Positions 16,244 through 52,993 of a stretch of DNA of 64,000 nt are shown here, in pieces. Source of the DNA: a virus (taxonomy: Duplodnaviria > Caudoviricetes); IMG/VR virus record IMGVR_UViG_2924263452_000001, positions 1 through 64,000 of that record; one strand, 5' to 3'. The translations under genes were made by a program, and so were the position numbers. Numbering within the stretch: the first letter of the stretch is position 1; every line of letters starts with the position of its first letter. The notes beneath the pieces were generated by a model that worked only from the letters and a program-made list of their open reading frames with translations, searched no databases and was not told the DNA's origin.

Positions 16244-16318
16244 ATAAAAACCAGATTTTATTTAGATTTTTATACTATATATAGTGTATTTATAAGTCAT
16301 TAACACTATATATGGTAT
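16244..16318. promoter_or_regulatory. Orphan 18-bp recombination-like site plus tandem NrdR-box-like palindromes
   Basis: ATAAAA-ACCAGA-TTTTAT (16244-16261); ATACTATATATAGTGT (16272) and ACACTATATATGGTAT (16303), 31 bp apart. Confidence 0.6.
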
Positions 16319-16399
16319 ACTCTAAGTTTTCATTTTTCCACTGTATCTTATTTTCATAATAATCAATGTCATCTCCTTTTTTATTATATTTTATAGTAC

Positions 16400-21963: not shown

Positions 21964-22599
21964 TTAATTTTTACATATATCTGCAATATGCAGACATAAC
22001 TTTTCTGGAATTACGCTACGTTCCACTGCACCCTTTAATCCCTGTGTTCCAGTTTTACTTCCTCTTGGAGCTGGTTGGTGACAAGAATCGCCATTATGAC
22101 ACATTGGCTTGAATTGCGGATCTGGATGATTAGTCCATATATCCGTAGGCTTCATTCTGGTATCTCCATACTGGCAATATGTAATTGTGTATCGTGGCAA
22201 ATTCTTCATAAATGCCATTTTCCGCAAGCCACCTCTAGGATTTTCAATAAACCAATATTTCGGTTGCAACTCACGAATAAGTTCGATTGTATGCTGCACA
22301 AGATTGTCTGACAGCTTCGCAAAATCACTTACTGGATCTAAATTCCCAGTAATGGGATTTTTCTTCCGATGATGTGAAATCGCTGCTATTGAATAACTTG
22401 TACATGGTGGACTCGCCCAGATTACATCCGGCTTGCCAAACTTATCAATAATATCTTTGGCTGTCACTTCCATAATATCAGCATACCAATCAATGTTTTT
22501 ATGTTGTTTGTCTAATTCGATTGTAAAAGTCTCATAACCACGTTGGTTAAAGGCTTTCGCAATGCTACGTGTTCCACTGAATAAATCTACACACTTCAT
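21964..22599 (-). CDS. Short C5-cytosine DNA methyltransferase (invertible 5' end in ON orientation)
   Basis: DLFSG, WASPPC, IENP. Confidence 0.85.
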   Translation of the reverse strand: MKCVDLFSGTRSIAKAFNQRGYETFTIELDKQHKNIDWYADIMEVTAKDIIDKFGKPDVIWASPPCTSYSIAAISHHRKKNPITGNLDPVSDFAKLSDNLVQHTIELIRELQPKYWFIENPRGGLRKMAFMKNLPRYTITYCQYGDTRMKPTDIWTNHPDPQFKPMCHNGDSCHQPAPRGSKTGTQGLKGAVERSVIPEKLCLHIADICKN

Positions 22600-22671
22600 T
22601 TTTATAATGTCTCCTTTTCAAATACCTATGGTTGTGGGATTTCAGAGTGCCAAATCAAAACATTGTTTTAT
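22485..22671. other. Putative invertible segment 1 (spacer ACATTG), ON
   Basis: ATAAAA-ACATTG-ATTGGT (minus, 22485-22502) and ATCAAA-ACATTG-TTTTAT (plus, 22654-22671). Confidence 0.7.
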
Positions 22672-23604: not shown

Positions 23605-24357
23605 TTATACAAGTTTCTCGACAGACTGCCGGTGTTCGGAAATTCTCTTCTCCATAGCTCTACAATACTTCTCTTCGGACTCCATCGCAATGTAATTCCG
23701 GCTTGTATTGATTGCAGCTATACAGGTAGTTCCACTTCCAGCACAGCTATCAAGAACTGTATCACCTTTGTTTGTGTAGGACTTAATAAGCCACTCACAC
23801 AATTCAACTGGTTTTTCTGTTGGGTGCGTTACAACTGAAGGATGTGGTTTCTGGAATCTTAGAATACTTGTGGGGTGCTTCCATTCTCCTAGTTCTTCTC
23901 GATTATCCACAAACTCATATTTTCCATAATTATTGTTGTCACACGCTTTCTTCTTTCCTTTGCTATGGTTCATTGCTCCCAGAACTTTTTGAGGATTATA
24001 CACTGGTGGCTTCTTATAAAAGATACATACCTCTTCATGTACTCTCAAAGGCTGTCTATTCGCATTAAGAAATCCAGTGGAAAGTACCTTATCCCACACA
24101 AGATTGTACTTCCATAATTTTTCCTGGCTTTTCATCAGATCAGCCATAAACATTCCATCTGCGAAAATTGCAATACAACCATTAGGTTTAATGATTCTCA
24201 AATACTGTTCCCACATTTTATCAAGTGGAATAATTGAGTCCCATTTATTATGTGTTCGCTCATATGGAGGATCTACCAGAATCATGTCAACACTTTCATC
24301 TGGAATATCCTTCATAAGCTCTAAGCAATCTCCTTTATATACTTTGTTTAATTCCAT
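23605..24357 (-). CDS. N4C/N6A DNA methyltransferase, beta class
   Basis: DPPY, HPTEKP, DSCAGSGTT. Confidence 0.92.
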   Translation of the reverse strand: MELNKVYKGDCLELMKDIPDESVDMILVDPPYERTHNKWDSIIPLDKMWEQYLRIIKPNGCIAIFADGMFMADLMKSQEKLWKYNLVWDKVLSTGFLNANRQPLRVHEEVCIFYKKPPVYNPQKVLGAMNHSKGKKKACDNNNYGKYEFVDNREELGEWKHPTSILRFQKPHPSVVTHPTEKPVELCEWLIKSYTNKGDTVLDSCAGSGTTCIAAINTSRNYIAMESEEKYCRAMEKRISEHRQSVEKLV

Positions 24358-24363
24358 TTCTGC

Positions 24364-24498
24364 TCCTAATGATAGTTTTATTCAAGAGCGATGGTTGTCG
24401 TATTTCAGGCTTCAAAACATTGTATTAAGTGATTGCCTTAATTTTAAAAGTACGTGTTCATCGTGGTTTCAAGCCACTAGATGAAACTATCATTTTAT
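24364..24498. other. Putative invertible segment 2 (spacer CTATCA), directly upstream of the MTase RBS
   Basis: ATAAAA-CTATCA-TTAGGA (minus, 24364-24381) and ATGAAA-CTATCA-TTTTAT (plus, 24481-24498). Confidence 0.75.
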
Positions 24499-25123: not shown

Positions 25124-25351
25124 TCATTTATTTTTTCTTTCTGTAAAATAAATTGTCACGGAGCAGCCATCACTTGTATCTTCCTTTGTATATCTGTCGT
25201 ATTTGTAATCATTTCCAATACCAATATCTAAATTATCTTCTCCCCACTCAGAACGATACACTGATATTTGAGGATATGATTCTCCGCATCCAGTTAACAT
25301 AAAAACAGATGCAAGAACGCATCCTGCCAGTAACAAAACTTTCTTTTTCAT
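25124..25351 (-). CDS. Small lipoprotein
   Basis: Signal peptide with LTGC lipobox. Confidence 0.7.
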   Translation of the reverse strand: MKKKVLLLAGCVLASVFMLTGCGESYPQISVYRSEWGEDNLDIGIGNDYKYDRYTKEDTSDGCSVTIYFTERKNK

Positions 25352-25962
25352 TATTTAGACCTCTCTATCTTTATTAAAGCTACACACTGTTCGTATGCTA
25401 TTCCCCAATTTATTGCTTCTCTTCCCTTCTCATCAAAGATCTGGAGATATGCCCGATACATCATCTTTGCAATAATGTCTGGCTCTACTCTACCAACAGA
25501 ACCACCAAATGCCGGAATAACCACAGATTTACAATTATTATTGAGTGCTTCCATAAGTGTCGTCCTCATACACTGATATATAATTGTTGGATCTTTTATT
25601 TCTGATGGTGTTCGCATTGTTGGTGTATGTATCAGCCGAATATTACGACGTGGGATTTTAAAAGAAATACTTGTTCCCACAGGTTGTTCTCCATACAATT
25701 CTTGAACAATCTTTTTCTGTACCATCAACTGTAATTCATTACCGAAATACTTAGTAAGTGCGCCATCATATCCGCCATCCATTAAACCGTAGGAATTTGC
25801 AGGAGAAACTACTGCATCAATATCTGACTCATGTTTTTCCATAAAAGTCTCGAAATCACTCCATACAAATTTTACAGGGGCAACTTCATCGAATATCGGA
25901 TGGAAGTGTCTCTTCCATGCGTCTATCATATTTTTGTTAAAATCTAACAAGCATATGTCCAT
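25351..25962 (-). CDS. Macrodomain protein
   Basis: VSPANSYGLMDGG.D, PTMR, IPAFG. Confidence 0.88.
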   Translation of the reverse strand: MDICLLDFNKNMIDAWKRHFHPIFDEVAPVKFVWSDFETFMEKHESDIDAVVSPANSYGLMDGGYDGALTKYFGNELQLMVQKKIVQELYGEQPVGTSISFKIPRRNIRLIHTPTMRTPSEIKDPTIIYQCMRTTLMEALNNNCKSVVIPAFGGSVGRVEPDIIAKMMYRAYLQIFDEKGREAINWGIAYEQCVALIKIERSK

Positions 25963-26400: not shown

Positions 26401-26517
26401 TTACAATAACTTCTTGTCATATTTATTTAGTTTTTCTATAATCAAGTCATTTGGTAATATATTCTTACAAAAATATGCTGTTGCAAATGGACTTCCCTCT
26501 ATTGCCAAATTCATATT
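26401..26517 (-). pseudogene. Disconnected C-terminus of the adenine MTase
   Basis: Minus frame NMNLAIEGSPFATAYFCKNILPNDLIIEKLNKYDKKLL*; joins the plus-strand ORF in frame on inversion. Confidence 0.85.
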
Positions 26518-26982
26518 TTAACAAGGCGAGAGGAAGATAATGGCTAACAACATAGGATATTTAACAAGTAAACTTACTCCAGAACATCAGGAAATGTATA
26601 CCCCATATTATGCTGTTGAACCAATTGTAAAATATATCCCAAAACAATATAAAATCTGGTGTCCTTTTGATAAAGAATGGTCTGCATTCTATCAAACTTT
26701 CAAAAATCTTGGCTATAATGTAGTCAAATCACACATAGACGACGGGAAAGACTTCTTTATATATGAGCCGAATGAATACGACATAATAGTTTCTAATCCA
26801 CCATTCAGTATTAAAGACAAAATACTTGAACGGTTGTACGAATTAGGTAAACCATTTGCCGTATTGCTGCCATTAAATTCATTACAAGGGAAGTCAAGAT
26901 ACAAATTTTTCTCAAAAGGTGTCCAGCTTTTATCATTCGACCAGAGAATAGGTTTTCATAATAGATCAAATATGAATTTCGT
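26504..26982. other. Putative invertible segment 3 (spacer TATGAA), OFF
   Basis: Perfect 12-bp inverted repeat AAATATGAATTT at 26507-26518 and 26968-26979. Confidence 0.9.
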
Positions 26983-26992
26983 CTACATCTAA
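26540..26992 (+). CDS. Inverted N-terminal part of an NPPF-type adenine DNA methyltransferase
   Basis: YTP, WCPFD, NPPF; the only credible plus-strand ORF in the window; truncated at the inverted repeat. Confidence 0.85.
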   Translation: MANNIGYLTSKLTPEHQEMYTPYYAVEPIVKYIPKQYKIWCPFDKEWSAFYQTFKNLGYNVVKSHIDDGKDFFIYEPNEYDIIVSNPPFSIKDKILERLYELGKPFAVLLPLNSLQGKSRYKFFSKGVQLLSFDQRIGFHNRSNMNFVYI

Positions 26993-27253
26993 CTTTTCTA
27001 ATGTCCAACAGCCGCACATGGTTTTTAACCAATCTTCTGCCTGTTCTTTTGATGAATAAATCCCTCTAAGAAGTGATGCAGTTGTCAAATTCAACCATCT
27101 GTATCTAAGAGCAACCCCATTTACCGACCACTTATCTACAACCAGCATAATAAGAAACTCTTCTTTGTCAGTATATAAGCGTGGAATTTCTAACTGTTTC
27201 ACTTTGTATATATCCCCAACATGAATATTATTTACTTTCTTCAAATTTTTCAC
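26966..27253 (-). CDS. Hypothetical protein whose C-terminus changes with inversion
   Basis: Ends DEIHI* now and DEIHILTRREEDNG* when flipped. Confidence 0.65.
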   Translation of the reverse strand: MKNLKKVNNIHVGDIYKVKQLEIPRLYTDKEEFLIMLVVDKWSVNGVALRYRWLNLTTASLLRGIYSSKEQAEDWLKTMCGCWTLEKLDVDEIHI

Positions 27254-27941
27254 CTATACTTTCAACTTCCCAGTCTCTATTTCTTGTAGCCCATGTGATT
27301 GCTTCTTCTCTTGTAGAAAATACCTTTCCTGAAATCGTCCCGCTTGATAGGTTTACCCATCTGTATGTATTATCTATCATTGGAATCTCTGATTTATCAT
27401 TCACTAAAAAGAACCAAAAATCATCAGTATCTTCCCAATTTGTCGCATTATGCTCTGTAACCAAAAAGAGATTCTTAAATTGTTTTCCAAGTATTTCTTT
27501 GATATCCGGCAAATCCTCTGAATATAAATTCAGTTCTCCTGTAATTAAGTCAATCTTTTCTATTTCCATAGGTTTAAATGCAATTACCGCCCACTGTGGA
27601 ATATCTAAAAATTCTGTTGACTCGTCCACGACATTAAAGAAATCCTGTCTGTTGACCATTCTGCGTTCATGTGCTTTTTTAATGATTTCTTTCATAGCTT
27701 CATCATTTTCTACTTCAAGTACAATTTTGGTAAAACTGCCACTAATCCACCGAGCGAAAAGTTCTTTGTCAACTCTCGCATTTGGGCTGATTGTGTAATC
27801 ATTGTTAGTCTCATTTAAAGCAGCAACATTTCTTTTAAACCATTCACAGAAGAAAGCTGTAGCCCCATGTGCCACCATAGCCCCAAGTTTTCCAGGACTC
27901 ATATTTAAGCTTTTATTTACTACAATAACCTGTTTATACAT
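27228..27941 (-). CDS. Pth2-type peptidyl-tRNA hydrolase with an extra C-terminal domain
   Basis: KQVIVV...MSPGKLGAMVAHG, TKIVL. Confidence 0.75.
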   Translation of the reverse strand: MYKQVIVVNKSLNMSPGKLGAMVAHGATAFFCEWFKRNVAALNETNNDYTISPNARVDKELFARWISGSFTKIVLEVENDEAMKEIIKKAHERRMVNRQDFFNVVDESTEFLDIPQWAVIAFKPMEIEKIDLITGELNLYSEDLPDIKEILGKQFKNLFLVTEHNATNWEDTDDFWFFLVNDKSEIPMIDNTYRWVNLSSGTISGKVFSTREEAITWATRNRDWEVESIGEKFEESK

Positions 27942-40537: not shown

Positions 40538-41494
40538 CTATTCCCTTCTGGTTGGTTTCTGTATAATCACCGCATTCATACTCTGTTTGCCAAATCCTTT
40601 ATAATCTCTTGCCATAAGTGTATTTGCACAATTGGTTATATGATTTACATGGTTTGCATAATCACTTACAATTACTCCTTGACGATATTTTTCGTCTGTA
40701 TCAGATCCCACATGTGGCGATCTAATGAACAGCCCCCCCATGTCTGATTGTATGAGAATAGGATCTATACAGTTTTCCACTGTCAATCATTTCCTGTAAT
40801 GCCTTTTTCTCTTTGGCTGAATCAACGTAATATTTATCTGGCACGTTTTCTTCATTCTCAAGAATATCGTACATTGTTATGTCACTTTCAAACCCATCTG
40901 GAAGGTTGAAATTGCCGTTATCAAGTTCTTTTCTGATGATTACAAGATATAATCGTTCTCTGTTCTGTGGAATACCAAAATCTTTGGCATTCAGAACTTT
41001 CCAGTAAGTGTTATATCCATATTCGTGAAGCTCTTCGATAAACATATCGAATGTGTTTCTGAAAGATTTTCCTACAATATTTTTTACATTCTCATAAATT
41101 CCCCAGGCTGGCTTATTTGCTCGAACAACACGCAGCCATTCAACCAACAGAGAAGAACGTGTCTTATCAAGGTTTTCGCTCCCACAATTAGGACACTTAT
41201 CTCTTTTTGACCAATGAACTGTCAAAGGGTTATATGTAAATGGCTCTCCGTCATCACCTGTACAATCTTTACAAGTCCATCCACTACCAGCTTTCTTTCC
41301 AGCAATACTGAAATCTTGGCATGGCGATCCCCCACAAATCATATTGAATGGTAACATGCTGTTTTCATCAACTTTCGTAATATCTCCAATGTTAAGGTTT
41401 GGATCAACTCCATGAATAGCACAATATGAAGTTGCGGCAAACTTATCAACTTCGCAAAAATTTACCAGTTTCCAACTTTGAATTAATTTTTCAT
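40538..41494 (-). CDS. Large subunit of the split C5-MTase (motifs II-VIII); start codon lies in an inverted segment, C-terminus set by a G tract
   Basis: FCEVDK, GDI, GGSPCQDFS, ENV, PQNRER; C-run 40733-40739. Confidence 0.85.
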
Positions 41495-41652
41495 TGTAAA
41501 ACTATTGTAGAAAAGTGCTGATTTAGTGGCATTTATACTATATTTTGTATGCTATATGTATATGTTGACACTAAATATAGCGTTTATTGCCACTAAAAAT
41601 CAGGTAAAAGAGGTATAAAAATTGGAAAATAACGATAAAAAATTAATTTAAT
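41477..41652. other. Putative invertible segment 4 (spacer AATTAA), OFF
   Basis: ATGAAA-AATTAA-TTCAAA (minus, 41477-41494) and ATAAAA-AATTAA-TTTAAT (plus, 41635-41652); AAGAGGT RBS and TTG (41622) on the plus strand. Confidence 0.85.
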
Positions 41653-42249: not shown

Positions 42250-42990
42250 TTATCCTCCTATTAATTGGCTCTCATTTTCCTTCAATACAAGCTGACAAGC
42301 AATTCCGCAATCTTCCATGACTTCTAAATCCATACGCCCACGTTTAGGATCAAGTTTATCTAGGAACACTCCCTTAATGCAGCTATGCCCTATTTCCCTT
42401 TCCTGTCTTGCCCTACGTTCGAACACCTCTGGGAAATCTACTCTAATCTTATTCCAATATCCCATACCGCCTTTTACGCATCCAATACAGTTATTATTTG
42501 GATATCCAAGATCATACATAACTGGACGTTTTAATCCCAGTTCTTTTGCAAGTGCATGACAATCTTCTTTTGTGAATCCATTTTCGATTAACGGAAATTC
42601 ATGGTCGTAGTCTGTCATAGTATTTACCAATCTGTCAGCTCTACGCTTTTCATTTAAGTCATATCCCCATACATAAGTATGGTGGTCAAAGTTTTGTGCT
42701 TCCCATTTCTTTCTTACTTCTTTCTTCAAAAATTTTGTACAAGGTGCGCCATACGGAGTATTGATGCAACGTGTTTTTTCAATAACATCATCTACTGACG
42801 CATATCTTTCAGACTGTAATATGGTTATTTTTCTTCCTAATAATTTCTCGCAATCATGCAGAAAGCGTAAACTATCTGGATGCTGATTCGGAACGTGAGT
42901 ATAAATAAGCTCATCAATATCCTTTGATAAATAACATGCTACAAAACTTGAAATTCCTGTACTAAACCAACAAACTTTCACACCAGCCAC
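42250..42990 (-). CDS. PAPS-reductase / adenine nucleotide alpha hydrolase family protein
   Basis: WFSTGISS PP-loop variant, APCTKFLKKE, NNNCIGCVKG; start may be the GTG at 42981. Confidence 0.75.
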   Translation of the reverse strand: MAGVKVCWFSTGISSFVACYLSKDIDELIYTHVPNQHPDSLRFLHDCEKLLGRKITILQSERYASVDDVIEKTRCINTPYGAPCTKFLKKEVRKKWEAQNFDHHTYVWGYDLNEKRRADRLVNTMTDYDHEFPLIENGFTKEDCHALAKELGLKRPVMYDLGYPNNNCIGCVKGGMGYWNKIRVDFPEVFERRARQEREIGHSCIKGVFLDKLDPKRGRMDLEVMEDCGIACQLVLKENESQLIGG

Positions 42991-43225: not shown

Positions 43226-43956
43226 TCATCCCCACTGATCCGCCATTGCTTTGGCGATTCCTGGGAATGTTTTACTTCTTGCTTTTGCTCTCCCGGCTTG
43301 ACCACCAGTTGTATTTTTGATTCCCTCACACCAACCAATCCTTTTGCCTTTGCATTTTTTACCTTGGCAAATATATTGTGGCTCTGGAACTGGCAAATTA
43401 TTTTTTCTGTCAAGCACTGGAAGATTTTTAAGCCATAAACATGTTCTCTTCTGGAAATAATTCTCCGCATCATTCTTGTTACTAGCAAAATAATACGGAT
43501 GAACAATTTGATTTGGCTTTCTCCAATGTGTATTCATATACCCCACTGGATTTTCAATTGCAATTTTCTCACAATCTGCATTTGCTATTTTTAAGAAAAA
43601 TTGTTCTGCCTCATTTCTTTTTTCTATTCTAGCGGCTACTTTTTCTGGTGGATTACACTTTAATGAGTAATGCCGTGTTCCTGCAGATGTAAGATATGTA
43701 CATGGTGGAAATGCAATTATTATATCCCATTTCCCGTCTATCTTATGTTTGATTCCATCTGTTGTCTCGAACTCACAATTTCCGTTCAACAAAGGAATAA
43801 CATCTCCCATAACGTGCCATTCTGGATGATTACCAGAACATTCAATTATGTCACAGCTATATGCTTCATGTCCTTTATTTCTAAACTCAATACATACTCT
43901 TTGTGATTCTTCACACGCCACTAATATTTTTAATCTATGTTGAAAACAACTTTCAT
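43226..43956 (-). CDS. Phage C5-cytosine MTase-like protein; true start lies in an inverted segment
   Basis: KILVACEESQ, AFPPC, ENPVG, RSKTFPGIAKAMADQW. Confidence 0.8.
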
Positions 43957-44095
43957 TTTATAGTTTAAAAATACGATGGTTGTCGTATTAGAAATCAGAT
44001 ATGAAAGAGTTTCTTCCTATTATATATAGAAACAGAATTGTGAAAGGACGATTAGAACGTGAGTTCAGAGACAGTAGATAAAAGTTGTTTTTTAT
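43939..44095. other. Putative invertible segment 5 (spacer GTTGTT), OFF
   Basis: ATGAAA-GTTGTT-TTCAAC (minus, 43939-43956) and ATAAAA-GTTGTT-TTTTAT (plus, 44078-44095); GAAAGGA RBS and GTG (44059) on the plus strand. Confidence 0.88.
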
Positions 44096-46735: not shown

Positions 46736-46783
46736 ATAATATCATATTAAGTTGTATGTGTCAATATTTATTTCGTTTATCTT
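46736..46783 (-). promoter_or_regulatory. sigmaA-like promoter upstream of the MTase cluster
   Basis: TTGACA-N17-TATTAT plus the repeated upstream motif. Confidence 0.6.
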
Positions 46784-47783
46784 ATGTGCAATAAATCTTA
46801 TTTAACTTTTCTATAATTGCTATTTCTTCCTGTCGCTTTTCTTCTTCAAATTCTTCTTTAAAGGAATCGCGCCACTTTTTCATCTCACCTGTATTTTCTG
46901 GATCAATCCATTGTGAGATAATCTTTGCAATGTCATCACCACATTTTTCCCGTACAATATCAATAACATGTCGTTTATTTCCTACGGTATCAATTTGCCC
47001 ATCTGGTAATTGTACTAAATCCATTTCTTCTTCCTTTTCACAGTTCTTCTTTAAATAATAACGTGTCGCGTCTTGTGGATTTTCAATACCATTGTAATTT
47101 TCTATAATATATTTTCCCTTAATGCCTCTCTTTGTTACTGGTACAATTTTATTGCAAAATAAATTATAATCTATCCCTTTTTGAATATATGACTCTGTTA
47201 ATGCCATTGATCTGCTAGTACAATTAACATTAAAGAATCTAATCGACGTTCCATCTGTTAATATAATTTTTAATTGATTTCTATAAATGCGGAATAAACA
47301 ATATCTTGGATAACTGTCTAAAATTTTTTCAAATAATAGTTTCGCCCATTTTATATCGTAATACCAAATACCGATATTTCTTGCGAAATTATTCATCCTT
47401 TATACTTTCCTCCAATTGCCATATAAGTCATTTGGCTATAACTCTTATGTACAATTTATTTTACAAACTCTGCTGTTCCATCTTTATAACTCTTTAGTTT
47501 CCAACCTTTGCTATTAAACCACTTTTGTTTATACCCATACCTTTTTATCCATTTTTTATTTATTCTCTTTTTCTTATGCTTTTTCGCTTGTACAGTTTTT
47601 AAATATTGGATAGTGTATGAATCTGGTTTTCCTGAAATATCCACACCAAAGATTTTCAATAATTTATCTATATTAATACCTTTATCTGGTTCTAATGTGA
47701 ATGAACTCTCAACCATATCGAACCTTTTTACACATTTTTCTTCCATTTGCATAAATTATTTCTTTGTCACCTTTCAAAATATA

Positions 47784-48733
47784 TTACTCAACTTCTACCC
47801 CTATATAATCCATTACATGTCTTATTCCTAATCCGCCATTTTCAATAGGTTTCATACAATAATTCCAAAGTTTCGGATGCGTCTTTTTGAGCATTTGGAA
47901 ACGATTTGGTTCTTTTTCAAGATGACAACCAAACCCGCACCAGACGCAGCCACTTCTTCTCACTCCTGTTGTATGATATTTTCCATCTTCAAACACAATA
48001 TCACCATAAACTGAAGCATATGGAATTTTCTTAGTGTACAAATATTCAAGTACATCCTGCTCAGTCCAGAATCCCATAGGCTGACTCTGTGGACGTTTTT
48101 TATTAAAGGCGTTACATCCAGTTTTCATGTAGTCATTTTTCCTTTTATGACTTTCTTCTGCCATTAAGCCTAAAATTGGATGCTTACCTGTTTCTTTTTC
48201 ATACTCTAATGATGGTTTCTTTTTCATGATCGTACAACACTTATCAGAAATCAAGAAATCTGCATCAAGCAAATATTCATACTTCTTAAAATTATACTGA
48301 GTAGAAAGCTCGCCCGTTTTAGGATTTATGTACTCTCCGTGTAATTGCTGCCATCTGGTATTCCCAGGCTTCGCATAATGGACTTTGTTCGCCACCTCTT
48401 TGCTGATTACCGGATAGCCGTATTTTTGCACAACCTTTTTAAAATTTTCCTTTGGTCGTAGCCATGTGACATTATCAATAGTTTTTACAAATTCACGAAG
48501 TTCCGGATATTCTAAGCCAGTGTCAGTATATACAGCTTCAATGTCAGGATATATCTTTCTTGCTATATCAAGTAATACTGTACTGTCTTTACCACCGGAA
48601 AAAGCCACATAAACCTCTCCGCCATAAAACTCATACCATTCACGTATACGATTTTCAGTCTTTTTTATTTTCAGTTCAAGGGGAAGTGTCTGCAGTATCT
48701 TAAGACTTTCTTCCGTGTAAATTCTGTTTTTAT
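47784..48733 (-). CDS. PAPS-reductase family protein; true start lies in an inverted segment
   Basis: FSGGKDS, DTGLEY, CC..MKKKP, RSGCVWC; frame is open upstream of 48608 but has no start codon. Confidence 0.85.
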
Positions 48734-48872
48734 TATGGACTCTGGAAAGCCTTAACTACGGCATTCCAGAATTGTACATAATAAACAAACAGTTAGTAAT
48801 ATAAGAACAATTATAAAAGGAATAGCATATTTATGGGAAAAATTGAAATAAACAATAAAAACAGAATTTTAT
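48716..48872. other. Putative invertible segment 6 (spacer ACAGAA), OFF
   Basis: Perfect 16-bp inverted repeat AATAAAAACAGAATTT at 48719-48734 and 48854-48869; RBS and ATG (48833) on the plus strand. Confidence 0.9.
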
Positions 48873-48882
48873 TTAGTTTTAA

Positions 48883-48929
48883 TATCTATATATTGTGTCT
48901 GTGATATTTTCAAGCACCATATATTGTGT
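48883..48929. promoter_or_regulatory. Tandem NrdR-box-like palindromes
   Basis: TATCTATATATTGTGT (48883) and GCACCATATATTGTGT (48914), 31 bp apart. Confidence 0.6.
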
Positions 48930-49164
48930 GCTAATCTTTCCAAATAAAAGATCCTTGCACAACAGCTAATAATGCAAATATGAAATACAACAGTAAACAT
49001 TTTCCACATATTTCCAAAAATGCAATAATCGTAAATCCTTTTGTCATAATCAACGTGCAAGTTAAATATGCCGGGCATATAGTCATACAGCACGACATAG
49101 CAGCCAACAAAAGAATAAAAACGATAATCTGTATGTACCTAACATACTTTTTTATATATTTCAT

Positions 49165-50373
49165 TTATCTCAGCTCCACAAGATATTTTATAGTACATTG
49201 TTCTTCTTTATAAACAATAATCTCATCATTCCTTAACATCTTCCCAGCATGGGCGTGTAAGCAGTTTGCTCCGGGGCATTCTTTTTGTAATCGTTCATAA
49301 TTAAAGTTATAATATTTGCTATCAAATGAATGTACATCATATGGTTTTCCATATGCCACATCCATAAGTGCCATAAATCCGAAGTTTTCATGCTGTCCAC
49401 TCCAATATCCATCAAGGCTTGTATAGCCTTTTGACTTCTGAGCTTTTGGGGCATAGTACAGACCATATCCAAACATTTTTCCTGTTATTACGGCATTTGT
49501 TGGTCGAAGAACCAAACCAGTATTAATAATTGACCACCAATTCTCGTTCCTGCTGCCATGCCATAAAAGCTTTCGTGTCTTGATATTTTCTTTTTCTACA
49601 AAGTCGTCAAATCTCTTTTGTGTACGAATGTTGCGAACTCTCCAAGCTTTATGGAATCTGTTGCTGATTTCGCCCAACTTACCTTTAATCATTTCCACTT
49701 CTGAAGCATCAACTTCTTCAAAAATCAGCCCCATTGCTTCAATGATTGTTTCTTCATTATTTTCTTCTACTTTTTCTGGCTCGTTTTGAACAGTGTGTGT
49801 AACAACCTGACCTCTCATAACGTCAAGAAGATCCTGTTCATCTTTCAGAATTTTTGCGAAGTCATCTTTTCTTTTTGAAAGGTAATCATTCACGTTTCCC
49901 ATTTTTCGTGGGATTACAGTAAATAATGTAAGGAGCGTATTATTGAAATCTTCTACAGTTTCTTTGTTCATAAGATTATCAATGACATTTTGTGCCTCGT
50001 CCACCATAGCTTGTGTTACTTGCTGCGAAGATACTTTGTAATTTGCCTGGATTTTCTGACGTGCCATATCTTGTAGCCTTTGAACAATTTCAGCAATTAC
50101 TTTGTTTTCAATTTTTTTATAGCCATCATTAGATTTTACTGGTTCTTTCTGAATAAGATCCTGAACTAAGTGTGTCTGATCGACATAGCCTTTTTTGATT
50201 TTTTCTTTATACTTTTTATCCCACTGTGACATTGAGTAGGAAGCGTGCTGGCAAGTTGCACCAACACGTCCATATTCAACTTCAAAGATATCGCCATGTG
50301 GAATCATCTTATAATATTTGTTATTATTGTTTCTCGTTACCATAAGAAGGTAAACTGGCGATTTTTCTGACAT
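49165..50373 (-). CDS. PARP-like ADP-ribosyltransferase (WGR, helical and catalytic domains)
   Basis: NNNKYY..YGRVG, LLWHGSR, GKMFGYGLYYA, NDEIIVY (H-Y-E triad). Confidence 0.88.
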   Translation of the reverse strand: MSEKSPVYLLMVTRNNNNKYYKMIPHGDIFEVEYGRVGATCQHASYSMSQWDKKYKEKIKKGYVDQTHLVQDLIQKEPVKSNDGYKKIENKVIAEIVQRLQDMARQKIQANYKVSSQQVTQAMVDEAQNVIDNLMNKETVEDFNNTLLTLFTVIPRKMGNVNDYLSKRKDDFAKILKDEQDLLDVMRGQVVTHTVQNEPEKVEENNEETIIEAMGLIFEEVDASEVEMIKGKLGEISNRFHKAWRVRNIRTQKRFDDFVEKENIKTRKLLWHGSRNENWWSIINTGLVLRPTNAVITGKMFGYGLYYAPKAQKSKGYTSLDGYWSGQHENFGFMALMDVAYGKPYDVHSFDSKYYNFNYERLQKECPGANCLHAHAGKMLRNDEIIVYKEEQCTIKYLVELR

Positions 50374-50998: not shown

Positions 50999-52993
50999 TT
51001 ATCCTTTATTTCGTTTATCTAATAGTTTTAAAAATTCTTCCTCTGTAATAATAGGTACATCATTTTTCTTTGCATCTTTATTTTTACTGGAAGAACTTTC
51101 TACATCATTATTTATAAGATATGATGTTTTCTTTGAAACACTTCCTGCTACTTTGCCACCCAAAGACTCAATTTTCTTCTGAATCTCTTTTCTACTTGCA
51201 AAAATGTGAACATTTCCAGTGATGGCAAAAATCATATCTTTAAAAATTTGTGGTTCGTCTGATACCTGTTGCACCTGAAATTTCATAAGAGATACAAGTT
51301 CTTTATATATGTCATTGGCAAAGAACACTTCTTTGAAATACTTGTGAATACTCTTATTAATCTCAACGCCAAACGTTTCAAGCTGTGTAAAATCAAATCC
51401 GGAAATAACTGCTGCCTCAAATTTGTTCCAATCGCCGTTAAACTCTCTGCTGATTATTTTTGCCTTGCTGAGTGCCACATTCGGAATGCCTAATGCAGCA
51501 ATGAAATTTTCCAGCTTTACATTTTTACTTTTTTCAATGGACGAAAGGAGTTTGTCGAATGATTTTTCGCCCATTCCTTCAAATTCCACAATCTCAACCC
51601 TATGCAAATCCAGATTGTAAATGTCAAGTGGATTACTGATAATCCCGGCATCAACCAATTTCTCAATCTTTTTGTCTGAAAGCCCATCAATATTCATGCC
51701 ATCTTTTGAAGCAAAATATGATAACCCTCTGATGCTCTGAGCCGGGCAATTTGGATTTTTGCAATAGATGTTTATTGTTTCTCCATCCCCTGCAAATGTA
51801 GTTATTCCACCACACACCGGACAAGCTCTCGGAATCTCAAATTCATAAGATGTGCCGCCTGTACACTTGATAATCTGAGGGATAATTTCGTTTGATTTAA
51901 CCACTGTAACTGTTGCATACGGTCTGATTTTTAATTTCTGCATAGTGTTAATATTATGCAATGATGCTTTTGAGACTGTAGTGTTATCCAATATGACTGG
52001 TTTAAAGACTGCCACTGGCGTTATCTTTCCGGTTCTACCAACTTGCCACTCGATATTGGTTATCGTGGTTTCTTCCTCTTCTTCTTTGAATTTCAATGCT
52101 AATCCATTGCGATAATGATGCCCTGTCTTTCCAAGACTTTTTCCATAAGCAATGTCATCGTACATAATAACGACTCCATCAATCGGAGTTTTTGTTTCCT
52201 CTGCAATATCAACCAGCTCATTCACAAAATTGTTAAATACCACAAAATCATGTTGCGCCACATCGTATTCAAAGAAGGTGCAAATATCAAATCCAAGATT
52301 GTTTACTGCATACAATCTGCCAGAAAGTGAATTGATTTCATCAAATCCCTCCAACACATTAAATGCATAAAAGCACACTTTTCTCTTTGAGCATATTTCA
52401 GAATTTAACTGCTGTACTGATCCACCAGCAAGATTTCGTGGTGTTTTGTATCTATCTTCTTCCGGTAGTTTTTCATTTATCTTTTCAAAATCGTCTCTGT
52501 GAATAATTCCTTCACCCGTAACCTTCAGATGACCTTTATACGGGATTTTCTGTGGAATATTCATAAAGGTTCTGGCATTATCCGTAATAAGACTTCCCTC
52601 TTCGCCATTTCCTCTTGTACTAGCAGAAACAAGTTCCCCATTTTTATAAATCAGGCAAATAGTAAGACCGTCCAATTTATGCATTAAAAGAGCTTTTCTA
52701 CCTTTTGCAAAATTCGCTGCAACCGTTCTATCTTTCGTCTTGTCAAGGCTCAACAACGGATAACTATGCTTAAATTTAGGTAACTCTGAATTGACAACAT
52801 ATCCAACTGTGTAATTTGGACTGTTGGCACAGTGAAAATCTGCTTTATCTTCAAGATTTTTTAATTCATCCATCATAGAATCATATGTAGAATCATCTAC
52901 CGACGGTCGAGATTCGTTATAATACTCATCACGATATTTATTCAGAATTTTAGTAAGATGTTTAATTCTTGTAATCTGGTCATTAGTATCCAT
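50999..52993 (-). CDS. ligA: NAD-dependent DNA ligase
   Basis: KLDG, TRGNG, PRN, GRTG, zinc finger, BRCT. Confidence 0.96.
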   Translation of the reverse strand: MDTNDQITRIKHLTKILNKYRDEYYNESRPSVDDSTYDSMMDELKNLEDKADFHCANSPNYTVGYVVNSELPKFKHSYPLLSLDKTKDRTVAANFAKGRKALLMHKLDGLTICLIYKNGELVSASTRGNGEEGSLITDNARTFMNIPQKIPYKGHLKVTGEGIIHRDDFEKINEKLPEEDRYKTPRNLAGGSVQQLNSEICSKRKVCFYAFNVLEGFDEINSLSGRLYAVNNLGFDICTFFEYDVAQHDFVVFNNFVNELVDIAEETKTPIDGVVIMYDDIAYGKSLGKTGHHYRNGLALKFKEEEEETTITNIEWQVGRTGKITPVAVFKPVILDNTTVSKASLHNINTMQKLKIRPYATVTVVKSNEIIPQIIKCTGGTSYEFEIPRACPVCGGITTFAGDGETINIYCKNPNCPAQSIRGLSYFASKDGMNIDGLSDKKIEKLVDAGIISNPLDIYNLDLHRVEIVEFEGMGEKSFDKLLSSIEKSKNVKLENFIAALGIPNVALSKAKIISREFNGDWNKFEAAVISGFDFTQLETFGVEINKSIHKYFKEVFFANDIYKELVSLMKFQVQQVSDEPQIFKDMIFAITGNVHIFASRKEIQKKIESLGGKVAGSVSKKTSYLINNDVESSSSKNKDAKKNDVPIITEEEFLKLLDKRNKG

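Follow-up and report, generated by a model that had tools for sequence, protein, structure and literature searches.

The window analysed here, 64 kb at the beginning of a 127-kb IMG/VR phage contig (record IMGVR_UViG_2924263452_000001; G000, about 75% complete), contains at positions 47784-48872 a gene for a PAPS-reductase-like protein together with a short DNA cassette that holds its start codon and is flanked by inverted repeats. The explanation that fits the data best, and which we consider probable, is that this cassette is a start-codon inverton, caught here in its OFF orientation and representing one of seven such switches of the phage, and that the enzyme under its control probably modifies phage DNA. 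A near-identical relative of the phage, G001, is 171 kb long and rated as 100% complete. Below, contigs and loci are designated by G and L numbers and proteins by P numbers, and residues are numbered as in P0001.

The cassette is bounded by a perfect 16-nt inverted repeat with arms at 48719-48734 and 48854-48869 and 119 nt between them. No other perfect inverted pair of 16-mers with a spacing of 20-600 nt occurs in the window; the mean number of such pairs in Markov-shuffled sequences was 0.01, one shuffle out of 100 containing any. On the plus strand the 119-bp interior (48735-48853) carries the ribosome-binding site AAAGGAAT (48816-48823) and, 9 nt further, an ATG at 48833, with codons for MGKIEINNKNRI; this ATG opens seven codons unique to the cassette (MGKIEIN), which continue into the distal arm. 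The fixed body of the gene lies on the minus strand (47784-48718), extends from the tyrosine codon (TAC) of YTEESLK to the stop codon, and encodes the SGGKDS motif as well as C168/C169, C209 and C265/C268. When the cassette is flipped in silico, a single minus-strand frame arises, ...MGKIEINNKNRIYTEESLKILQTLPLELKI...FSGGKDS, in which the cassette codons are joined in frame to YTEESLKILQTLPLELKI...FSGGKDS (YTEESLK...FSGGKDS being the part contributed by the fixed body). A preceding sequence-only reading of this DNA had claimed that a perfect 16-bp inverted repeat flanks a ribosome-binding site with start codons and that a flip fuses the latter in frame to the PP-loop sequence; the former proved to be exact, and the latter is borne out by the in-silico flip. 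In the present orientation the minus-strand frame of the gene is open back to ...VHNKNRIYTEESLK, where it is closed by TAG, and its first start is an internal GTG at 48608; the switch in the window sequence is in the OFF state. The gene-proximal recombination site (48716-48733) is situated within the coding sequence, at the codons for NKNRIY, and reads TGTAAA-TTCTGT-TTTTAT on the plus strand, i.e., ATAAAA-ACAGAA-TTTACA on the minus strand, and the distal site (48855-48872, ATAAAA-ACAGAA-TTTTAT) has dyad-symmetric arms flanking the same 6-bp core.

A consensus scan for a promoter in the cassette gave nothing above the shuffle level, and the sole promoter-like match, TTCCCA-18-TATAAT, was not significant and points to the gene in the OFF state; therefore, we describe the element as a switch of the start codon and ribosome-binding site and not as a promoter switch. 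As to the OFF orientation, two in-frame ATGs precede the TAG in the minus sense at 48741-48790 (MYNSGMP*LRLSRVHNKNRIY), and in some relatives (P0125, P0138, P0141) the TAG codon is replaced by a codon for Q, which creates an alternative full-length open reading frame in OFF. Since no suppressor tRNA was found, this replacement is read as neutral variation, and the OFF state may be leaky in those relatives. Recoding of TAG as Q, considered as a way to read the OFF frame, was rejected: aragorn shows only tRNA-Met and tmRNA, and TAG terminates 16 of 110 long open reading frames. The tmRNA (tag AEELRMVA) and the single tRNA-Met of the phage are encoded outside the window (G000 68551-68625, 99449-99800).

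The cassette is almost certainly a real inverton, as the segment is bounded by inverted repeats and both of its orientations occur in nature, at the DNA level in a sister clade and at the protein level for this cassette and three others. The sister clade has an enzyme with 80% identity and a cassette of 198 bp with a different core. The cassette of L009 is the reverse complement of that of L010 (194 of 198 positions are identical after reverse complementation vs. 120 of 198 when aligned directly), with the flanks being collinear and the downstream flank on the gene side identical; the ON frame of L009 reads MAENTIKNGG...HNKKHIHTESSLK. As for the proteins, P0002 from public assemblies (323 aa, 92% identical) starts with MGKIEINNKNRIYTEESLK, which is exactly the predicted ON product of the window cassette, while P0127 and P0137 start with MGI[AV]DT[SD]NKNRIY and represent variant B of the cassette in its ON form; P0005, P0143, P0153, P0164, and P0168 are the ON forms of other clades. 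The clusters containing ON proteins consist mostly of truncated gene calls of 215-306 aa, the output to be expected of a gene caller for the OFF state. Counted by contig numbers over the listed members (15 per cluster), ON forms make up some 2% of the closest clade, 9% of another clade and 34% of one more, all of these being rough figures.

Three variants of the cassette could be distinguished, namely A (the window), B (L008, L052, L053, L056, L058) and C (the clade with the 80% identical enzyme). Variants A and B have identical arms and interiors that are 70% identical, compared with 89% for the gene; the arms are 100% conserved across 13 related contigs, and all three variants retain AGGAAT-N11-ATG and the reading frame. 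No inverted repeats were found at the distant homologues (45-62% identity), which have ordinary starts a few residues ahead of a conserved L-x-x-Q-x-x-P-L-E-x-K-I helix; this position of the starts implies that the ON product is of normal length. Within the sample examined, the switch is confined to this phage group.

The PAPS-like gene shares its switch design with six other loci. The whole contig was searched for facing half-sites of the form core' + TTT[TCG]AT ... AT[AGC]AAA + core, the 6-bp cores being reverse complements of each other at a distance of 40-700 nt. This strict search retrieved six site pairs in 127 kb, compared with 0.35 +/- 0.54 (maximum 2) in 200 shuffles; a seventh, looser pair (26504/26965) was missed by the strict pattern since one of its arms is TTAAAA. 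The common design of the sites is ATRAAA, a pair-specific 6-bp core and TTTYAT, the cores being the same within each pair and different between the pairs (ACATTG, CTATCA, TATGAA, AATTAA, GTTGTT, ACAGAA, TTGAAA). In every pair, the distal site has almost perfect dyad symmetry (ATRAAA-N6-TTTTAT), and the outer arm of the gene-proximal site is degenerate, as expected for an arm located inside a coding sequence.

Genes for DNA methyltransferases are the targets of six of the seven pairs; only the PAPS-like gene is of another kind. The pair with the core ACATTG (22485-22671; pair 22491-22665) spans the point where a C5 methyltransferase fragment gene (21964-22599) begins, and that with CTATCA (24364-24498; pair 24370-24492) closely precedes the ribosome-binding site and ATG of an N6_N4 methyltransferase gene (23605-24357). 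The looser pair, with the core TATGAA (26504-26982; arms 26504/26965), surrounds a plus-strand adenine-methyltransferase-like open reading frame (26540-26992), which has a weak match to Pfam EcoRI_methylase (20.9 bits, below the cut-off). Two more pairs are situated at the starts of a C5 cytosine methyltransferase gene (40722-41477; core AATTAA, 41477-41652, pair 41483-41646) and of a phrog_757 DNA methyltransferase gene (43226-43921; core GTTGTT, 43939-44095, pair 43945-44089). The pair with the core TTGAAA lies outside the window (G000 106280-106557, 254 nt apart), inside a gene for an 809-aa protein with N6_Mtase and DEAD/ResIII domains (L065:3-2429:-), and may bring about an intragenic inversion. 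Considering the shared site design, the occurrence of both orientations in nature and the conserved tyrosine recombinase described below, the switch of the PAPS-like gene very likely uses the same recombination system as the methyltransferase switches. The sequence-only reading had placed the gene under the same switch as the others and had taken all the other switched genes to be methyltransferases; the latter holds for the six other pairs, one of them with the weak match just mentioned.

The candidate for the flipping enzyme is a Xer/FimB-like tyrosine recombinase of 240 aa (G000 97242-97964), which comprises the catalytic domain only. It is retained in five out of five relatives tested, being 94-98% identical in the near clade and 65% identical in the clade with the 80% identical enzyme, where the arms are still ATAAAA/TTTTAT around the different core. 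Every NCBIfam model matched by the protein has a cut-off far above its score, including the XerA/C/D models (the best was XerA, 55.7 vs. 220) and the FimB/E-type invertase models (24 bits vs. 221). Dyad arms around a 6-bp spacer, which is required to match within the pair, fit strand exchange by a tyrosine recombinase.

As to the enzyme itself, it matches Pfam PAPS_reduct with 72 bits and phrog_424 with an E-value of 7.5e-52 (residues 8-308 against profile positions 127-374 of 460). It belongs to a large family, with 3757 clusters at 50% identity and E<=1e-3. Its scores with the hidden Markov models of CysH and APS reductases are 3-8 times under the cut-offs (PRK02090, 45.6 vs. 154; TIGR00434, 41 vs. 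165; TIGR02055, 28.8 vs. 235; TIGR02057, 23.8 vs. 254). In an alignment of 74 sequences with 40-92% identity, the SGGKDS motif (residues 48-53) has invariant G50 and S53, the other positions being kept in 69-73 sequences; C168, C169, C265, and C268 are invariant in all 74 and C209 is present in 72. K173 and R200 are strictly invariant in this set as well. The assimilatory PAPS/APS reductase family is defined by the C-terminal ECGLH motif with a catalytic cysteine that forms a thiosulfonate intermediate. No conserved cysteine follows CxxC in the 74-sequence alignment (C272 is found in 19 and C295 in 53 of the sequences) and ECGLH is absent, so the catalytic tail is missing. The PP-loop differs as well, SGGKDS of the phage protein standing against SFGIQ of CysH and SGAED of APS reductase. 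The CC...CxxC set of APS reductases binds a [4Fe-4S] cluster; the CC pair of the phage protein is aligned with ECC of the Mycobacterium tuberculosis APS reductase (7LHR), and its CC...CxxC appears to be a set of the same kind.

The AF2 model of the protein (pLDDT 96.7) gave 6VPU, 1SUR, and 2GOY as the top Foldseek matches (E-values from 4e-8 to 1e-7). CysH and APS reductases come first, followed by CysD, the PAPS domain of FAD synthase, TtuA and LarE; the matches span about 60% of the model, with a TM score of 0.42 on the query. This model predicts a PAPS-reductase (adenine nucleotide alpha-hydrolase) fold, in which residues 10-46, forming two helices and the first strand, are an integral part (pLDDT 98), so that OFF-state products initiated at internal starts would be defective. 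On the whole, the enzyme is not CysH, and the proposal of the sequence-only reading that it does not act in sulfate assimilation is upheld: the model scores, the missing C-terminal catalytic cysteine and the intact PP-loop all speak against an ordinary APS/PAPS reductase. Some family members are interrupted, the match in L037, L038, L040, and L048 extending over 1300 nt vs. about 950 nt expected, and P0322 and P0328 are fused to an HNH_3 domain, which suggests insertions of homing endonucleases or introns in this gene family.

The DNA-modifying role, advanced for this gene by the sequence-only reading, we infer from its co-regulation with methyltransferases, from the fusions of its relatives to C5 methylases and a helix-turn-helix (HTH) domain, and from one published genetic precedent. 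Since a switch of the same kind is present at six methylase genes, the PAPS-like gene probably acts on DNA and not in sulfate metabolism. Relatives of the protein are fused to a C5 DNA methylase (P0323, 767 aa; P0327, 890 aa, 5 members), HTH_17 (P0181) and a HerA/AAA_10 NTPase (P0320). The precedent is the gene of a PAPS-domain-Dam protein of a Vibrio phage, which was moved, together with a neighbouring gene, to a sister phage, and the recipient infected a Dnd-bearing host and lost the old one (10.1101/2021.05.05.442762). Phage PAPS reductases were also proposed as anti-defence DNA modifiers in a 2026 survey of Aca-regulated operons (PMC13551039); thus, a DNA-modifying role of phage homologues has already been proposed in print and is not new. 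Against it, virome papers usually label such genes as sulfur auxiliary metabolic genes (PMC8879888; PMC12323421). We consider DNA modification or anti-restriction, i.e., nucleic-acid modification with DNA as the target, to be the best reading and a reasonably probable one; that the mark is specifically a phosphorothioate seems doubtful.

Several observations weigh against this interpretation. The matches to the known phosphorothioation enzymes BrxP (64 bits, residues 26-90 only), SspD (32 bits, residues 45-108) and DndC (12 bits) cover just the PP-loop region, and CysH and CysD are matched at least as well; judging from these scores, the protein should not be filed as a member of the DndC, SspD or BrxP families. 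An NTPase partner is needed by every known phosphorothioation system, and in BREX type 4 both a PAPS-domain protein and an NTPase are required (PMC12914056); BrxP with BrxC makes phosphorothioate in gut bacteria, and phosphorothioation systems are present in about 8% of gut genomes (PMC12914056). Profile searches, among which there was none for SspC, revealed no DndD, BrxC or cysteine desulfurase either in the 75%-complete G000 or in the 100%-complete G001, where the sole DndD match was noise (12.8 bits). Nor does a constant partner, an NTPase included, accompany the family members across 22 distant loci: their neighbours in these phages are ordinary early and replication genes, with methyltransferases at about four loci. 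As to the switch, all 15 contigs with the core ACAGAA that could be read as DNA (the window, 6 viral and 8 metagenomic) are OFF. A scan of metagenome contigs with the gene-proximal site found the 8 contigs, all OFF, and a scan of metagenome contigs for the exact ON junction of this cassette gave no match; therefore, the ON state of this very cassette is seen as protein records only. Finally, a CcrB/XisF-like large serine recombinase (392-2113) is also encoded by the phage, although it is more likely to be an integrase, and the tyrosine recombinase was assigned by co-occurrence and site logic only, which makes it a putative flipping enzyme. Taken as a whole, the interpretation of the sequence-only reading is partly supported; the installation of a DNA modification is made probable by the co-regulation with methyltransferases, the C5 and HTH fusions and the Vibrio precedent, whereas the likeness to DndC, SspD and BrxP is reduced to the PP-loop region and the DndD or BrxC partners are lacking.

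The sequence-only reading had tentatively extended the DNA-modifying role to a second phrog_424 paralogue (42250-42990, minus strand), for which the case is weaker still: there is no switch site nearby, and the PP-loop is degenerate (FSTGISS). This paralogue has an SspD-like match across most of its length, and in three unrelated phages (L033, L045, L051) its homologues follow those of the switched gene at a distance of 1-2 kb downstream; the two proteins may work as a pair. Sequence and profile searches of solved structures found no DndC, SspD or BrxP structure for comparison, and the literature search on IbrA/IbrB returned only unrelated papers.

The sequence of events that we propose is as follows. 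A site-specific recombinase, most likely the 240-aa tyrosine recombinase, would stochastically flip the 119-bp cassette between its two sites. The pair-specific 6-bp cores would keep the seven switches orthogonal: being identical within the pairs and different between them, they should prevent recombination between different switches. Once flipped to ON, the cassette would provide the ribosome-binding site, the ATG and seven codons, which would result in the full-length 323-aa enzyme, while in the OFF state there would be no start ahead of the first two helices and the first strand, and nothing functional would be made. The ON enzyme would be an ATP-dependent, Fe-S-bearing, stand-alone member of phrog_424, most likely adenylating an oxygen of nucleic acid and then exchanging it for sulfur. 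The target is probably phage DNA; the adenylated oxygen could be that of a backbone phosphate or a base carbonyl, and sulfur could be supplied by a host persulfide relay. The resulting mark would alter the sensitivity of the phage to host restriction, shielding it from some systems and exposing it to modification-dependent ones; as it would both protect and expose, a mixed population would be favoured, and the mostly-OFF state would reflect the cost of the mark. Switching together with six methyltransferases, the gene would give the phage population many epigenetic states. More specifically, though only as a tentative suggestion, the phrog_424 enzyme may install a sulfur mark in DNA without the known partner NTPases, as one of seven invertible epigenetic genes; such a mark would be either a phosphorothioate made independently of a partner or a thio-base that is so far not known from natural DNA.

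Other explanations of the locus were weighed against this one. The simplest of them, that the repeat is a chance occurrence or a relic, such as the remnant of a small mobile insertion, and the gene a startless pseudogene, would agree with the OFF state of all DNA-readable contigs that have the exact core. It is hardly tenable, and already largely refuted, given the ON protein with the predicted N-terminus in public data, the exact inversion at the DNA level in the sister clade, the preservation of arms, ATG, frame and ribosome-binding site across three diverged cassettes, the strong conservation of the gene body (89-100% identity) and a chance expectation of 0.01 such repeats per window. Almost as improbable seems an auxiliary metabolic gene for an assimilatory APS/PAPS reductase (CysH) boosting sulfate reduction by the host, even though the Pfam PAPS_reduct match, the best fold matches to CysH and APS reductases and the common annotation in virome papers agree with it: the scores of 41-46 bits face cut-offs of 154-165, the conserved C-terminal catalytic cysteine is absent, the canonical SGGKDS replaces SFGIQ or SGAED, and one would hardly expect a gene that boosts metabolism to be under a stochastic ON/OFF switch in common with methyltransferases.

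Two further possibilities, each of which we regard as unlikely, concern the target of the enzyme. It might thiolate or otherwise modify RNA, e.g., tRNA or the tRNA-like RNAs of the phage, in the manner of TtcA, TtuA or NcsA, the switch then tuning translation or escape from tRNA-targeting defences. A PP-loop combined with cysteine ligands for Fe-S is indeed the design of TtuA, TtcA, and NcsA, and these enzymes are among the fold or profile matches; yet TtuA is matched far less well than APS/PAPS reductases are, the six remaining switches that share this design are all located at genes for DNA methyltransferases, and fusions to C5 DNA methylases and an HTH domain are seen among the relatives. 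Alternatively, the protein might leave phage DNA unmodified and act against host defences based on sulfur (Dnd, Ssp, BREX type 4), either as a decoy for the NTPase partner or persulfide relay, or as a consumer of a small molecule. In favour of this, no partner NTPase (DndD and BrxC were searched for) or desulfurase was found in the phage, and the Vibrio phage study demonstrated escape from Dnd genetically, without a mechanism. Against it, a catalytic role is indicated by the strict conservation of the PP-loop, of K173 and R200 and of the four cysteines across 74 diverse sequences, and a family of 3757 clusters is much wider than the approximately 8% of gut genomes with phosphorothioation.

Modification of phage DNA by the switched enzyme, which we thus prefer, bears on the interpretation of a widespread gene. 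Few accessory genes of gut, rumen, and biogas phages are as common as the homologues of PAPS reductase, which are routinely reported as genes of sulfur metabolism. The flip-switch shared with six methyltransferases, the lack of the catalytic residue of the reductases and the retention of the adenylating PP-loop provide independent genomic evidence for a restriction or anti-restriction role of the family, and the natural pair of ON and OFF alleles is available for finding the product of the enzyme. The locus also adds to the case for multi-locus phase variation of their own epigenomes by large phages. If the NTPase-independent sulfur mark is real, a phage lineage could have up to 2^7 modification states, a hedge against both modification-blocked and modification-dependent restriction, and one of the genes that are most frequently assigned to sulfur auxiliary metabolism in gut and rumen viromes would be an anti-restriction DNA modifier. 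What is already known are the gene-altering inversions of methyltransferases in bacteria and multi-target tyrosine invertases such as RecV; what is new is the combination, i.e., a phage-borne, orthogonal seven-locus switch system with the phrog_424 family as a target. In the literature searched we found no description of a PAPS-like gene in a phage multi-locus flip-switch system.

The source of the sequence is a gut phage of about 170 kb, of the Firmicutes type, with a GC content of 34%, ribosome-binding sites of the Shine-Dalgarno type and nearly all genes on the minus strand. The region at 21-53 kb is rich in DNA methyltransferase genes and also contains the two phrog_424 "PAPS reductase" genes, a WGR-PARP gene, a Macro-domain gene and a gene for an NAD-dependent ligase. 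Immediately upstream of the PAPS-like gene, a protein of 402 aa with WGR and PARP catalytic domains is encoded (49165-50373, minus strand); this adjacency is kept in both clades and also in L025, whose homologue of the PAPS-like gene has 58% identity. Together with the Macro-domain protein (25351-25962, minus strand), the WGR-PARP protein could form a phage writer/eraser pair for ADP-ribosylation. The same strand encodes a PTH2-type peptidyl-tRNA hydrolase (27228-27941) and the NAD-dependent DNA ligase (50999-52993). Two genes for proteins of 98 and 204 aa (46782-47752, minus strand), which have no Pfam or PHROG match, begin 32 nt after the PAPS-like gene and may be co-transcribed with it. They are present in the closest relatives only, the 204-aa gene being truncated or rearranged in several of these, and are rejected as obligatory partners of the PAPS-like enzyme because they are absent from the relatives with cassette B and from the 80% clade. 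At 48880-48945, a short distance upstream of the distal switch site, there are two copies of CACAATATAT-type motifs, conserved in relatives, and a similar palindrome, TATACTATATATAGTGT, is found at 16271-16319; these may be promoter or operator motifs of the phage.

Among the known systems, the closest in layout is RecV of Clostridioides difficile, a multi-target tyrosine invertase with invertible switches at cwpV, flgB, cmrRST and other loci. In both cases a small tyrosine recombinase (in the phage, the putative flipping enzyme) is encoded apart from its targets, several short invertible segments (about 150-300 bp) are bounded by short imperfect inverted repeats, each segment gates one gene or operon, and the setting is that of low-GC Firmicutes. 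Unlike the RecV system, the switches described here reside in a phage genome and their targets are genes of DNA modification; the cassette bears a start codon and not a promoter or a riboswitch-terminator, and the sites have dyad arms with pair-specific 6-bp cores. As for the enzyme, the APS reductases of Pseudomonas aeruginosa (2GOY) and M. tuberculosis (7LHR) are its best fold matches (TM score of about 0.6 on the target), and their CC pair and CxxC align or recur in it; it differs from them in having the intact SGGKDS, no ECGLH tail, a model score at one eighth of the cut-off and about 100 extra residues with the family-specific motif YGYPxxSK. With DndC, SspD, and BrxP, the last being its best PADLOC match, it shares the PF01507 superfamily, the PP-loop of ATP pyrophosphatases, cysteine/Fe-S chemistry and a predicted action on DNA. 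In contrast to them, the match extends over some 65 residues around the PP-loop, the phage has no DndD, BrxC or DndE, the DUF4007 domain is absent, and the protein is stand-alone, with 323 aa vs. 480-780 aa of the known enzymes. The PAPS-Dam protein of the Vibrio phage P5a_red (Piel et al., 2022), compared here by its description, likewise links a phage PAPS-reductase domain to a DNA methylase, but it is a fusion without a switch, encoded by a small podovirus of a proteobacterium. Finally, as in the gene-altering programmed inversions of bacteria, among whose targets DNA methyltransferases, PglX and restriction-modification genes show the strongest enrichment (Milman et al., 2023; PMC9881135), and as in partial intergenic invertons and phasevarions, the inversion here alters the coding sequence or its start. 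Genes of the PAPS-reductase family receive no mention in that survey (PMC9881135), and, unlike the bacterial inversions it describes, the switches reported here are carried by a virus, seven orthogonal ones in a single genome.

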